Sequence record: ON528746
Strand: one strand, 5' to 3'
Length of the DNA: 64,000 bases
Source: Shigella phage ESh36
Translations under genes and position numbers: made by a program
Notes under the pieces: model-generated
Told to the model about the DNA's origin: nothing
Database searches by the model: none
What the model saw: only the letters and a program-made list of their open reading frames with translations
Part shown: positions 55,982-59,462 of the stretch, in pieces
Position numbering within the stretch: position 1 is the first letter of the stretch
Layout: the number at the start of each line of letters is the position of its first letter

Positions 55982-56011
55982 ATAGTACCACAGAGGAACA
56001 GTCTTGTAAAC
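55982..56011 (-). promoter_or_regulatory. T4-type early promoter
   Basis: GTTTAC, 18 bp, TACTAT; repeated cassette copy. Confidence 0.6.
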
Positions 56012-56417: not shown

Positions 56418-57386
56418 TTATTTCAGAAGAGTAACCTCAGCAATTTCTTCCCAACCGTTTTTGTCGGTCATAATAAAGTCAGCAAGATAAAGAGCAGTAC
56501 GCAGTGAAACATTGCGTAAACGATTAACATTAACTTTCATCCATGATAATGCTTTATAAGTTTCTTCATCAGAAAGACCGCGCTTTTGCATCATGTCAGT
56601 TGAAAGAATAACATCTTCAACCCTGACCATAATTTCTTCATTAGTGTGAACACCCAAATCTAAATAAACTGAGCGGGACACTAATGCTTGTAAATGTGGA
56701 GCAAGTTTAGTACCACGGTCTAATTCGCGGTCAATGTCAACGTTTGTGATAAAAACAATCGTTCCTTTAAATTCAAACTCACGCTCAATGCCTTTTTCTT
56801 CTAAGTAAGAAGATGCAGTGCTCCAGCAGACTTTACGGGTCTCTCCGGTGTCCAGAGCGGCTTTTAGAAGATTAAGAATGTCCATATCAGAGAAAACATC
56901 CACATCATCAATCAAAAGGACAGAATTCTCTTCACGATTATTCCAGAGCTGTTCATAAAGACCAATACCAGAGATTTTACCGTTAATGCTTTTATATTCA
57001 ATGTATCCCTTATCATTTGCTTTATTCAAAGCTTTATCTAAAGAATACGTTTTACCAATACCCGCCGCACCAGAGATAATTAATGAACGAATGTTTCCGT
57101 TAATAATACCATTCGTCATCATTCCCATAACATTAAATCTTTTATTAATGCGGGTTTTCATATCTTCATATGATTCTTTAACTTCTTCAACTTTTACACC
57201 ATCATATGAAATGTCTGATTTGTAAACCCAAACACCGCGACGCTTACCGTCAATTTCAACAAAAACTTTACCATCTCCTTGTGCATCTACCGGAGCATTA
57301 TCTGGGAACCATTCACCTAAGAGCTCAAAAGTTCCAGAGATTTCTTTACCGAAGTAGATACCCTTATTGATAGTTACAGTTTTCAT
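56418..57386 (-). CDS. P-loop NTPase (Walker A/B ATPase)
   Basis: Walker A GAAGIGKT and Walker B VLLIDDVD; ATG start MKTVTINK with GGAG SD. Confidence 0.55.
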   Translation of the reverse strand: MKTVTINKGIYFGKEISGTFELLGEWFPDNAPVDAQGDGKVFVEIDGKRRGVWVYKSDISYDGVKVEEVKESYEDMKTRINKRFNVMGMMTNGIINGNIRSLIISGAAGIGKTYSLDKALNKANDKGYIEYKSINGKISGIGLYEQLWNNREENSVLLIDDVDVFSDMDILNLLKAALDTGETRKVCWSTASSYLEEKGIEREFEFKGTIVFITNVDIDRELDRGTKLAPHLQALVSRSVYLDLGVHTNEEIMVRVEDVILSTDMMQKRGLSDEETYKALSWMKVNVNRLRNVSLRTALYLADFIMTDKNGWEEIAEVTLLK

Positions 57387-57422
57387 TTTATTCTCCAATC
57401 TCACATTTGTTTTGATAGGGTA

Positions 57423-57452
57423 ATAGTATCACACTACTACCCTTCTGTAAAC
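57423..57452 (-). promoter_or_regulatory. T4-type early promoter
   Basis: GTTTAC, 18 bp, TACTAT. Confidence 0.55.
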
Positions 57453-57455
57453 AAT

Positions 57456-57719
57456 TTATTTTAACGTTCGCCAAATTTTTACTGCTTCACGGCGAGATAC
57501 TTCTACAGCTCCAAGTTCTATAGCTTTTTGGCGTCGGCGAGCGTGTAAGTCATAATGTTTAATGCGTTTATCTTGAAACCAAGAACGTTTCATTCCTATT
57601 GCTTCTGCCATTTCATGAAGCTCTTCAATATCTCCATCAGTGAACATATGACAATTTTTAGTTGGATGACCGCGAAGTTTCCATCCATGATTCATTAAAA
57701 CATCTACGTAAACTGTCAT
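57456..57719 (-). CDS. hypothetical protein
   Basis: 87-aa ORF. Confidence 0.45.
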   Translation of the reverse strand: MTVYVDVLMNHGWKLRGHPTKNCHMFTDGDIEELHEMAEAIGMKRSWFQDKRIKHYDLHARRRQKAIELGAVEVSRREAVKIWRTLK

Positions 57720-57865
57720 TGATTCTTCTCCAAATAAGTTTCGATAATTTTCTGAGCGAGATAAACCGCGTTATCTTCAGTTGCGTCTTCTAAGAAACTT
57801 TCAAAACACTCTGAAATTTCTTCTGTGTCAATCAACTTTTTTACTTCAATTGGTGTAATTTTCAT
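57716..57865 (-). CDS. hypothetical small acidic protein
   Basis: ATG at 57865 (MKITPIEV) with GGAG SD and early promoter. Confidence 0.4.
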   Translation of the reverse strand: MKITPIEVKKLIDTEEISECFESFLEDATEDNAVYLAQKIIETYLEKNQ

Positions 57866-57899
57866 TTTATTCTCCAAATCCGTATCAGTTGATAGTTGT

Positions 57900-57929
57900 A
57901 TAGTACCATAAAGCTTTATGCTTGTAAAC
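57900..57929 (-). promoter_or_regulatory. T4-type early promoter
   Basis: GTTTAC, 18 bp, TACTAT; repeated cassette copy. Confidence 0.6.
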
Positions 57930-57955
57930 CACTTTGTGAAAAATTTTTGAAATAA

Positions 57956-57973
57956 AAAAGGAGCCCGAAGGCT
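57956..57973 (-). terminator. UUCG-tetraloop hairpin terminator
   Basis: mRNA GGAGCC-UUCG-GGCUCC followed by UUUUUU. Confidence 0.5.
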
Positions 57974-57978
57974 CCCTA

Positions 57979-58989
57979 TCATTTATAATAACTTCGGTGG
58001 TTTTCAAGATAAACCCTCTCAAGGAAGTCATCCCAAAAACCCATGTCTACTTTTTGCTGCATACCGTTCTTAGAAGCTTCAGTAGATGCTGCTTCTACTT
58101 GATCGACCACATCTTCCAAAAACTCTTGAACCGTTTTAAATGGATGCTTACCCAACTTCACGTCGAGAATAAAGGGAGCATCTTGGAGTGGATAAATCAA
58201 GTCGCCAGTTTTGTAAATTTCCAATAGTTGAAGTCCACCACGACAAGCATGGCTCAGAGCTTTCCAGTCAATGCCTTCGTTGGCTTCGGCTTTACGAGCA
58301 CGTTCACCGTATTCAGCATCTAATTTGTTCAGTGACTGCTTAAGCTCAATAAGAGAAAGCGTTGTCTGATATTTACGACCCAACACAGTGTAGAACGTTT
58401 GTGGACCTGTTTTCTCATGATTATGGAATACCCATTCACAGAATTCGTTCTCTGGAAGACGATGCTTAATATCTTCAACTTTAGTACGACGCTGCTTAAT
58501 GGAACCGTCTTCTTGGTAATCAATCCACTGCTCAGGGATTTGATTAACTACTTTCAATACATCACGTAATGCAGCCAAACGAGAACCCTTAACGCCGTAT
58601 TTAGAAGCTTGCTTGCGAACATATCCTAAATAGGATTTCATGTTAGTCGTATAAAAACGAGAACGGTTGTCTTGAATAAACTTCCACACATCAGGCAAAT
58701 CAGATTTAACCACTAGTTCAGGTGGAGTGTGAAGCATATCTAATGCTACAGTTTCACCATCTGCTGCTAATTTAAAGAAATATTTAAGACTGTATAGTTC
58801 ATGGTCAATATCATCTTTAGTGTTTTTAGATGATGTGTTGTTAGTATTTTTACTCATGTGCTCTTTAACATTTCCAATAAGAATATCGCGAGCAGGAGGA
58901 ACAAAGATTTCTTTAAAATCTACATCAGATTCTGGAGTAGAAGTTCCATAAAGATGACTACCAAAATAAGACTTAACTACAGTTTTCAT
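57979..58989 (-). CDS. nucleotidyltransferase-fold protein (Pol beta superfamily motif)
   Basis: N-terminal YFGSHLYGTSTPESDVDFKEIFV resembles the GS-x9-DxD NTase signature. Confidence 0.5.
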   Translation of the reverse strand: MKTVVKSYFGSHLYGTSTPESDVDFKEIFVPPARDILIGNVKEHMSKNTNNTSSKNTKDDIDHELYSLKYFFKLAADGETVALDMLHTPPELVVKSDLPDVWKFIQDNRSRFYTTNMKSYLGYVRKQASKYGVKGSRLAALRDVLKVVNQIPEQWIDYQEDGSIKQRRTKVEDIKHRLPENEFCEWVFHNHEKTGPQTFYTVLGRKYQTTLSLIELKQSLNKLDAEYGERARKAEANEGIDWKALSHACRGGLQLLEIYKTGDLIYPLQDAPFILDVKLGKHPFKTVQEFLEDVVDQVEAASTEASKNGMQQKVDMGFWDDFLERVYLENHRSYYK

Positions 58990-59462
58990 TATTCAGCCTT
59001 ATATTCAATAACAGGACATACTTTAGCTTTACGAGCTTTTAAAAATTCAACGATAATCGATTTCTTGGGTTGAATAGGAGGTAAACCTTTATACGCCCTA
59101 TCAATATTTTCTATGTGTAAAGCATAATCCTTTTTCCATTTATAATCTTTATATTTTTCATACAAATGCGCAGGAATAACAAATGAACCGATAATAAGTA
59201 AAACAACCAAAAGCGCAAGTATAAATGCTGATGGAAGAAGAGTCCATAAACTACCGAAAATAAGCCAACGTTGTAGGCTTTCTGCACAAATAATTGTTAG
59301 ACCTGCGAGTATAGTACATCCGAAAAAAGAAACGAAAAATGTAGGGATAACAATAGACCAAAAGTATGCACACAGTGTCTTAGGTCGTTTCCATTCATCG
59401 TTAAACAGTTTGAATAATTTATAGTGCCAAGAGTTTTCATTAATAATCATAATTATAATCAT
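58989..59462 (-). CDS. membrane protein
   Basis: 157-aa ORF with several hydrophobic segments. Confidence 0.45.
   Translation of the reverse strand: MIIIMIINENSWHYKLFKLFNDEWKRPKTLCAYFWSIVIPTFFVSFFGCTILAGLTIICAESLQRWLIFGSLWTLLPSAFILALLVVLLIIGSFVIPAHLYEKYKDYKWKKDYALHIENIDRAYKGLPPIQPKKSIIVEFLKARKAKVCPVIEYKAE

Follow-up and report, generated by a model that had tools for sequence, protein, structure and literature searches.

Organization of the nrdC.10–nrdC.11 Region

A 64,000-nucleotide stretch of the genome of the Shigella phage ESh36 (ON528746), referred to below as the window, was analyzed with a focus on two neighboring genes, namely nrdC.11, encoding a putative RNA-repair nucleotidyltransferase, and nrdC.10, encoding an ATPase. 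The long open reading frames (ORFs) of the window are all located on the minus strand, as are all features described below, and the GC content is approximately 34%. The region under study (56418–58989) shows approximately 97% nucleotide identity with many genomes of the genus Tequatrovirus (T4-like phages). Comparison with the T4 proteins NP_049708 and NP_049709 gave 99% identity for NrdC.10 and 98.5% identity for NrdC.11; both genes are present in T4 itself (NC_000866). In the RefSeq relative NC_054914, the orthologues carry the notes NrdC.10 and NrdC.11, and the latter is annotated as a "nucleotidyltransferase". According to these sequence comparisons, the two ORFs are T4 nrdC.10 and nrdC.11, and the window is derived from a Tequatrovirus.

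The gene nrdC.11 (57979–58989) encodes a protein of 336 amino acids (aa), which was characterized using the ORF list, Pfam, PHROG and an AlphaFold model. The gene nrdC.10 (56418–57386) encodes an AAA+ ATPase of 322 aa, recognized by its identity with the T4 protein, a PHROG match, the structural model and Walker motifs. A mechanical ORF search placed nrdC.10 at 56418–57404 (328 aa from GTG). Translation almost certainly begins at the ATG at 57386, since it is preceded by GGAG and both the annotated orthologues and T4 agree with it.

A preliminary description of this region, made from the sequence alone, had placed two small genes between the ATPase gene and the 336-aa ORF, and both were found. 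The one closer to nrdC.10 encodes a DUF4031 protein (PF13223, 87 aa, 57456–57719; Pfam E = 1.1e-21). The other is a 49-aa ORF (57716–57865) assigned to phrog_6888 (E = 1.5e-30, with the match covering residues 40–88 of the over-extended ORF). It was given as 88 aa in the mechanical ORF list, but the additional stretch (57866–57982) crosses a terminator and a promoter, so the longer form was considered an over-extension. The GTG-initiated form of nrdC.10 (additional stretch 57386–57404) is likewise over-extended into such regulatory sequence. In NC_054914, the annotated length of the orthologue of the small ORF is 49 aa.

Assignment of NrdC.11 to the RlaP Family

NrdC.11 matched the Pfam family RlaP (PF10127) with 44.0 bits (E = 2.8e-11; gathering score, 23) and phrog_388, "nucleotidyltransferase" (E = 1e-135). 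The full-length NrdC.11 family is sizable; it amounts to 2,493 clusters when grouped at 90% identity and, at 50% identity, to 3,705 representatives with E ≤ 0.001. The initial set of homologues (at least 77% identity) was too shallow for structure prediction, and the necessary diversity was supplied by a profile of distant phage homologues. In the resulting alignment of 127 homologues (27–88% identity), the residues S11, S21, D22, D24, D60, D62, Y131, R230, K243, H247, A248, R250, P267 and G280 were invariant, while G10, D84 and some other positions were conserved in more than 90% of the sequences.

These residues include the elements of the Pol-beta signature, namely G[GS], [DE]x[DE] and a third conserved carboxylate. 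The GS...DxD part (G10, S11, D22 and D24) lies within GSHLYGTSTPESDVDF (aa 10–25, 58915–58962). The AlphaFold model built on the 127-homologue alignment had a predicted local distance difference test (pLDDT) score of 90.5 and showed an alpha/beta core at the N-terminus; the C-terminal domain is helical, and its last element is a long helix (residues 316–335). In the core, D22xD24 is located on the strand 23–30, and D60 and D62, which belong to the motif KDDIDHE (58798–58818), start the strand 61–67. Because of this placement on a core strand and their invariance, D60/D62 probably supply the third catalytic carboxylate. The residue D84 (motif ALDMLH) was also considered for this position and was rejected, as it is helical in the model.

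The C-terminal domain contains the motif YGERARKAE...GIDWKALSHACR (58240–58311) with the invariant residues R230, K243, H247 and R250. By analogy with the description of the Pseudomonas fluorescens enzyme PfRlaP (10.64898/2025.12.29.696909), this motif presumably binds RNA or nucleoside triphosphates (NTPs) in the cleft. Within the helical domain, the model also contains a beta-rich insert (residues ~154–208, 58366–58530), which is shorter in some bacterial homologues (a gap of 14 residues in the protein of locus L124) and may be an RNA-binding subdomain. A search of the PDB with the NrdC.11 family profile gave no significant match; the only matches were non-significant (E = 0.22) and were to the arch region of the MTR4 RNA helicase.

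The leading Foldseek matches of the NrdC.11 model in the PDB were all nucleotidyltransferases with the Pol-beta fold: Hailong HalB, kanamycin, spectinomycin and lincosamide nucleotidyltransferases, 3c18, Tam41, TUT7, Cid1 and an MNT antitoxin. None of the PDB matches reached E ≤ 0.001. Their low template modeling (TM) scores mean that these matches support the Pol-beta fold and not any specific relative of NrdC.11. Sequence searches of the PDB with the NrdC.11, NrdC.10 and DUF4031 proteins taken singly returned nothing significant.

The Pfam assignment, the conservation across homologues and the predicted structure identify NrdC.11 as an RlaP-family Pol-beta nucleotidyltransferase with conserved catalytic acidic residues. 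The resemblance of its N-terminus to the Pol-beta superfamily, pointed out in the preliminary description, is thereby borne out, and the nucleotidyltransferase call stands, since both the fold and the conserved acidic residues were found.

RNA-Repair Genes near Relatives of NrdC.11

To place NrdC.11 in a wider context, prokaryotic genomes (one per species) were scanned, and 196 relatives of the protein were found. Eighty bacterial or archaeal loci were examined, the encoded proteins being 33–53% identical to NrdC.11 over essentially the full length. ORFs within 4 kb of each gene were clustered and recurrent clusters were named using Pfam, and the fetched flanks (6 kb) were searched with tblastn. 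The recurrent neighbors were the RtcB ligase, Ro60/TROVE-vWA proteins, the Pnkp ligase domain and Hen1. At least one RNA-repair gene was detected by tblastn within 6 kb at 16 of the 80 loci (RtcB at 11, Ro60 at 7, Pnkp ligase at 4 and Hen1 at 4), and at several loci, such as L138, L158 and L166, these genes were directly adjacent and on the same strand. For a single-copy gene, we estimate that chance would predict well under one such neighbor per 80 twelve-kilobase windows.

The nucleotidyltransferases located beside RNA-repair genes exceed the Pfam threshold for RlaP. They align with NrdC.11 along nearly its entire length: an RtcB-linked protein was 39% identical over residues 1–331 (E = 1e-73) and a Pnkp/Hen1-linked protein was 37% identical over residues 1–327 (E = 6e-70). 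In the Sinorhizobium phage phiM19, the NrdC.11 orthologue is flanked on both sides by annotated RNA ligase genes. RlaP membership and the full-length bacterial homologues beside RtcB, Pnkp/Hen1 and Ro60 genes favor an RNA-repair reading, and sequence data thus support the view that the NrdC.11 subfamily belongs to RNA repair. The presence of bacterial members of this subfamily in RtcB, Pnkp/Hen1 and Ro60 operons, beyond the Pseudomonas cluster of characterized enzymes, is a modest addition of this analysis.

A different neighbor was observed in T4-like phages without an adjacent ATPase gene, for example in Slopekvirus. In these phages (13 viral loci in the series L053–L075), a gene for a bifunctional nicotinamide mononucleotide (NMN) adenylyltransferase/Nudix protein is located within a few kilobases of the nucleotidyltransferase gene. 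The loci L087, L088 and L008 were grouped with them. As the two "bacterial" loci of the highest identity (52–53%) share this neighbor, they may be misbinned phage sequences.

NrdC.10 Is an AAA+ Protein of No Specific Clade

NrdC.10 matched phrog_1250 (E = 7e-167). Its AlphaFold model (pLDDT 90.0) contains an N-terminal beta domain (residues 1–61), a long helix (73–96), an AAA+ core (~100–245) and a helical lid (249–320). The Walker A motif GAAGIGKT (aa 106–113, 57048–57071) and the Walker B motif VLLIDDVD (aa 156–163, 56898–56921), both of which had been noted in the preliminary description, proved to be conserved in 55 homologues with 55–89% identity. In the segment SGAAGIGKT, the residues S105, G106, A107, G109, G111 and K112 are invariant, as are D160 and D161 in VLLIDDVD.

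In the fold search, the number of PDB matches at E ≤ 0.001 was 165; among the matches listed, all were AAA+ proteins. Like the RlaP score of NrdC.11, this result is far above the chance level. The matches span dynein AAA modules, ORC/Cdc6, RFC, Hda, NSF/Sec18, RuvB, NtrC/PspF and CbbQ. In Pfam, the matches to nSTAND3, AAA_16, AAA_22, AAA_14 and AAA were all under the gathering scores, and in NCBIfam all matches were under the cut-offs (Hda, 15 bits against 195). The family profile of NrdC.10 gave no match among PDB sequences. Sequence comparison gave weak indications of a relationship with Hda and clamp-loader PHROGs, and a Foldseek search of viral models returned only uncharacterized phage AAA+ proteins, including one from the Roseobacter phage RDJL Phi 1. 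Judging by its motifs and modeled fold, NrdC.10 is certainly an AAA+ protein; because the sequence scores are sub-threshold and the fold matches are scattered over clades, it was not assigned to a specific AAA+ subfamily.

Spacer between nrdC.11 and nrdC.10

The stop codon of nrdC.11 is immediately followed by a terminator-like hairpin, GGGAGCC-TTCG-GGCTCC with a T-run (57958–57977), whose sequence is identical in T4. Next comes a T4-early-type promoter-like site, TTTACA-17-TACTAT with TG (57900–57928), and then a ribosome-binding site (RBS) with an ATG. In T4, this promoter and ATG serve nrdC.10 directly. The window differs by the insertion of a 479-bp cassette just 3' of the ATG that starts nrdC.10 in T4, so that the first promoter-like site precedes the 49-aa ORF. 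Besides the 49-aa ORF and the DUF4031 gene, the cassette carries duplicates of the promoter-like site (TTTACA-17-TACTAT with TG, 57423–57451) and of the RBS, which now serve nrdC.10. The two copies of a 19-bp direct repeat, TTGGAGAATAAAATGAAAA, which includes the RBS and the start codon, delimit the cassette (57380–57398 and 57859–57877). Neither the 49-aa ORF nor the DUF4031 gene is present in T4.

The position of the DUF4031 cassette varies among phages: it is located either in the nrdC.11–nrdC.10 spacer (94–99% identity) or approximately 2 kb past nrdC.10 (73–78% identity). Genes for DUF4031 proteins were found in 327 phage records, mostly those of T4-like phages of Klebsiella and Escherichia; distant copies were present in phages of Acidovorax and Bordetella. 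The PDB sequence search gave no solved relative of the DUF4031 protein, and the literature on it consisted of one incidental mention. On the sequence evidence, the two intervening small genes are a mobile promoter-flanked cassette, a further modest point added by this analysis. We take it to resemble the shuffling of promoter-flanked modules that has been described in T4-type phages.

A third copy of TTTACA-17-TACTAT with TG is located at 55982–56010, 5' of nrdC.8. The repetition of this early-promoter-like motif gives the nrdC.8–nrdC.11 region the appearance of consecutive early transcription units of one gene each.

Relationship between nrdC.11 and nrdC.10

In order to evaluate whether the two genes form a pair, 78 nucleotidyltransferase loci of phages were surveyed with 10-kb flanks; co-occurrence was otherwise estimated from genus-level record counts. 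The ATPase gene was located downstream of the nucleotidyltransferase gene at 36 of the 78 loci, with spacers of 112–2,290 bp, and no ATPase gene was found within 10 kb at 42 loci. None of the 80 bacterial loci contained an NrdC.10-like gene. The Vibrio phage D491s encodes both proteins, with the genes approximately 68 kb apart. Among Klebsiella phage records, 286 contain the nucleotidyltransferase and 149 the ATPase, so at least 137 are without the ATPase; the corresponding numbers for Vibrio phages are 59 and 121, which leaves at least 62 records without the nucleotidyltransferase.

An nrdC.11–nrdC.10 operon was rejected on the basis of the terminator and promoter anatomy and these distribution data. 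The adjacency of the two genes is best read as T4-type synteny, since a hairpin, separate promoters and a mobile cassette are found in the spacer and each gene is common without the other. The pairing of the ATPase with the nucleotidyltransferase that was implied in the preliminary description does not hold for the same reasons, and the lack of a conserved partnership between the ATPase and the nucleotidyltransferase is another modest addition of this analysis.

It is quite improbable that the two proteins nevertheless constitute a two-component module in which the AAA+ ATPase remodels or delivers an RNA or ribonucleoprotein substrate or regulates the nucleotidyltransferase. In favor of such a module, the order and orientation (nucleotidyltransferase, then ATPase) are kept at the 36 phage loci, from Tequatrovirus to T4-like phages of Acinetobacter, and early-type promoters are found at both genes. 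However, T4-like genomes are broadly syntenic, and a shared order within the subfamily is therefore weak evidence. In addition, the hairpin and the separate promoter stand between the genes even in T4, the spacer is a hotspot for cassette insertion, and the ATPase is missing within 10 kb at more than half of the phage loci (42 of 78) and at all of the bacterial ones. The distance between the genes in D491s, the Klebsiella and Vibrio records with one gene only and the occurrence of ATPase relatives in unrelated phages such as RDJL Phi 1 also argue against a module. Still less likely is a more specific version, according to which NrdC.11 would be the missing third tRNA-repair enzyme of T4 and NrdC.10 would cooperate with it in Tevenvirinae, for example by freeing a damaged tRNA end from a nuclease or the ribosome. 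If this were true, the two proteins would form a phage-specific ATP-driven RNA-repair module without a counterpart in bacterial RlaP operons.

On the other side of nrdC.11 lies a gene for a predicted membrane protein of 157 aa (phrog_944, 58989–59462). Its stop codon overlaps the ATG of nrdC.11, which suggests translational coupling. A homologue of this protein is encoded along with the nucleotidyltransferase at 32 of the 78 phage loci, about the frequency of the ATPase.

Proposed Function of NrdC.11

Neither the genes nor their domain assignments are new: an AAA match for nrdC.10 and a match of nrdC.11 to the nucleotidyltransferases of COG3541 were already reported in 2006 (PMC1524935). The RlaP family was named and predicted to act in RNA repair in 2016 and 2021, and the biochemistry of its bacterial members was described in late 2025. 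The name refers to an association with RNA ligases, and RlaP, described as the commonest enzyme of this kind in jumbo phages, was predicted to restore the nucleotides lost to RloC-type nucleases ahead of ligation (PMC7824862). RloC is an anticodon nuclease that removes the wobble nucleotide, and this lesion is expected to resist repair by T4 Pnk and Rnl1 (PMC2610378). Viable genome-reduced T4 mutants have lost the fragment nrdC.11–mobD.3 (PMC9825161).

According to a preprint of December 2025 (10.64898/2025.12.29.696909), PfRlaP and PaRlaP, the enzymes of P. fluorescens and P. aeruginosa, add one or two nucleoside or deoxynucleoside monophosphates to an RNA 3'-OH. They need this acceptor and halt after one or two additions, function better with Mn2+ than with Mg2+, and do not use DNA or protein as substrates, E. 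coli proteins and DNA remaining unlabeled. A broken anticodon-loop end, presented in a mimic of cleaved tRNA, is favored over the acceptor end, and the aminoacylation of a repaired tRNA that had lost one nucleotide is raised by RlaP. Full-length tRNA-sized and rRNA-sized species are labeled as well, with little NTP specificity, and deoxyadenosine triphosphate (dATP) can be used. The 3'-OH product is compatible with a ligase that requires a 5'-phosphate. The crystal structure of PfRlaP contains an N-terminal nucleotidyltransferase domain and a C-terminal helical domain, with the last helix packed back on the first domain. In the same work, T4 NrdC.11 was listed as a member of the RlaP family with an unassigned function.

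The reading that we favor, with a probability of about 0.6, is that nrdC.11 and nrdC.10 are two independently transcribed early accessory genes, NrdC.11 extending the 3'-OH of broken RNA in the course of tRNA repair and NrdC.10 being a stand-alone protein. By homology with Pseudomonas RlaP, NrdC.11 would be made early in infection and would extend the 3'-OH of a broken RNA, preferably that of the 5' half of a tRNA cleaved within its anticodon loop, by one or two nucleotides without a template. It would act between the healing and sealing steps known for T4-type phages: Pnk (PseT) would strip the 3' phosphate and phosphorylate the 5' end, and RNA ligase 1 would perform the sealing. The additional step could allow the rebuilding of at least some of the tRNAs that are short of a nucleotide after the action of an excising anticodon nuclease such as RloC. 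The closest sequenced relative of the window phage encodes pseT, rnlA and stp. Pnk and RNA ligase 1 appear to be the natural partners of NrdC.11; this relative encodes both, and a 3'-OH product suits a 5'-phosphate ligase. NrdC.10, an AAA+ ATPase, would act on its own.

Several observations weigh against this interpretation. The addition of nucleotides has been established for PfRlaP and PaRlaP, whereas the activity of NrdC.11 itself and its anti-defense role are inferred; in the sequence similarity network of the preprint, T4 NrdC.11 belongs to cluster 5, while the characterized enzymes belong to cluster 1a (10.64898/2025.12.29.696909). The match to PF10127 is confined to residues 7–134 of NrdC.11 (model positions 24–142 of 249), and the folds matched in the PDB are only weakly similar (best E = 0.009, TM 0.24–0.29). 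No RNA-repair gene was present in the fetched flanks at 64 of the 80 bacterial loci, and in the closest relative pseT and rnlA are located approximately 80 kb from nrdC.11 and are not adjacent to it. Finally, the proposed role presupposes that T4-like phages meet RloC-type nucleases in nature.

It is also conceivable, although unlikely, that NrdC.11 works on intact RNA 3' ends, either mending nuclease-nibbled CCA ends of tRNAs or tailing host or phage RNAs and altering their stability. The labeling of full-length tRNA-sized and rRNA-sized species by the characterized RlaP with little NTP specificity, the weak fold matches to the terminal uridylyltransferases TUT7 and Cid1 and the fact that nrdC.11 is not linked to a ligase gene in T4-like phages are consistent with such an activity. 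At the same time, no match to the CCA-adding enzymes (class II tRNA nucleotidyltransferases) or the PolyA_pol head domain was found among the Pfam matches of NrdC.11 down to E = 0.1, and T4 relies on the host CCA-adding enzyme for the maturation of some of its tRNAs. The fact that RlaP prefers a broken end in the anticodon loop to the acceptor end points the same way, as does the position of the bacterial subfamily members next to ligase genes (RtcB, Pnkp), which implies a subsequent ligation step.

An extremely small probability was assigned to the synthesis of a nucleotide or oligonucleotide signal or decoy by NrdC.11, in the manner of a CD-NTase or of Hailong HalB, that would manipulate host immunity; nucleotide signaling was among the suggestions of the preliminary description. 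HalB, whose oligodeoxyadenylate product keeps a defense channel closed, was the top PDB fold match (9dbj, probability 1.0, E = 0.009), and RlaP can use dATP. But the HalB match covers only ~150 residues with TM scores of 0.26/0.38 and 13–15% identity, which is the level of general Pol-beta similarity; the characterized RlaP requires an RNA 3'-OH acceptor and stops after one or two additions; and the bacterial gene context is one of RNA repair, not of effectors. NrdC.11 had no match to CD-NTase or defense families in Pfam and NCBIfam, and PADLOC models matched neither the nucleotidyltransferase nor the ATPase nor the cassette genes. So while RlaP membership and the RtcB, Pnkp/Hen1 and Ro60 neighbors in bacteria support RNA repair, which had been suggested alongside signaling, the signaling part of that suggestion was not supported. 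Just as improbable is the nucleotidylation of a protein or small molecule, as performed by MNT-type antitoxins and aminoglycoside nucleotidyltransferases. The fold matches include the kanamycin, spectinomycin and lincosamide nucleotidyltransferases and the MNT antitoxin, and there was a very weak match to NCBIfam MntA (E = 0.062), which at 13 bits falls far below the cut-off of 60. No HEPN partner gene was detected among the neighboring ORFs scanned around nrdC.11, RlaP does not label E. coli proteins or DNA, and both family membership and gene context indicate RNA. The positive arguments for all of these alternatives come down to generic fold likeness or to a gene order shared in one phage subfamily.

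The proposed extension of broken tRNA by NrdC.11 bears on a question raised since the description of RloC in 2008, namely whether T4-like phages use this protein against nucleotide-excising tRNA nucleases. Its counter-defense role is a published hypothesis.

Comparison with Known Systems

A comparison of the window with the T4 genome indicated the same neighborhood (nrdC.1–nrdC.11, then the rI–tk region) in the same orientation, and the terminator, promoter and RBS 3' of nrdC.11 are also the same. The differences are the 479-bp cassette with the 49-aa ORF and the DUF4031 gene, which separates nrdC.11 from nrdC.10 in the window but not in T4, and the mobD homing endonuclease gene, which occupies in T4 the place of the gene for the 157-aa membrane protein.

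NrdC.10 shares the Walker A and B motifs and the core and lid fold with the AAA+ clades (RFC, ORC/Cdc6, Hda, RuvB, NtrC/PspF, NSF and dynein), but its N-terminal beta domain (residues 1–61) is unique and a clade-specific assignment was not made. Hailong HalB and the kanamycin nucleotidyltransferase ANT(4'), the best fold matches in the PDB, resemble NrdC.11 in the minimal Pol-beta fold and in the DxD motif near residue 20. However, identity is 8–15% with TM scores of 0.24–0.38, and the C-terminal domains, substrates and gene contexts differ.

Pseudomonas RlaP belongs to the same Pfam family as NrdC.11 and combines an N-terminal Pol-beta core carrying conserved aspartates with a C-terminal helical domain, an arrangement that NrdC.11, judging by its model, may share; the bacterial members of the NrdC.11 subfamily are, in the same way, encoded beside RtcB and other RNA-repair genes. 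In contrast to Pseudomonas RlaP, NrdC.11 is phage-encoded with no adjoining ligase gene, is longer (336 aa against the 249 positions of the Pfam model), contains the beta-rich insert (~154–208) and belongs to a different sequence cluster. The tRNA repair pathway of T4 (Pnk/PseT and RNA ligase 1), which counters PrrC, operates in the same phage lineage as that of the window. Compared with this pathway, NrdC.11 would add a nucleotide-restoring step, which would be needed only for base-removing lesions such as those caused by RloC.

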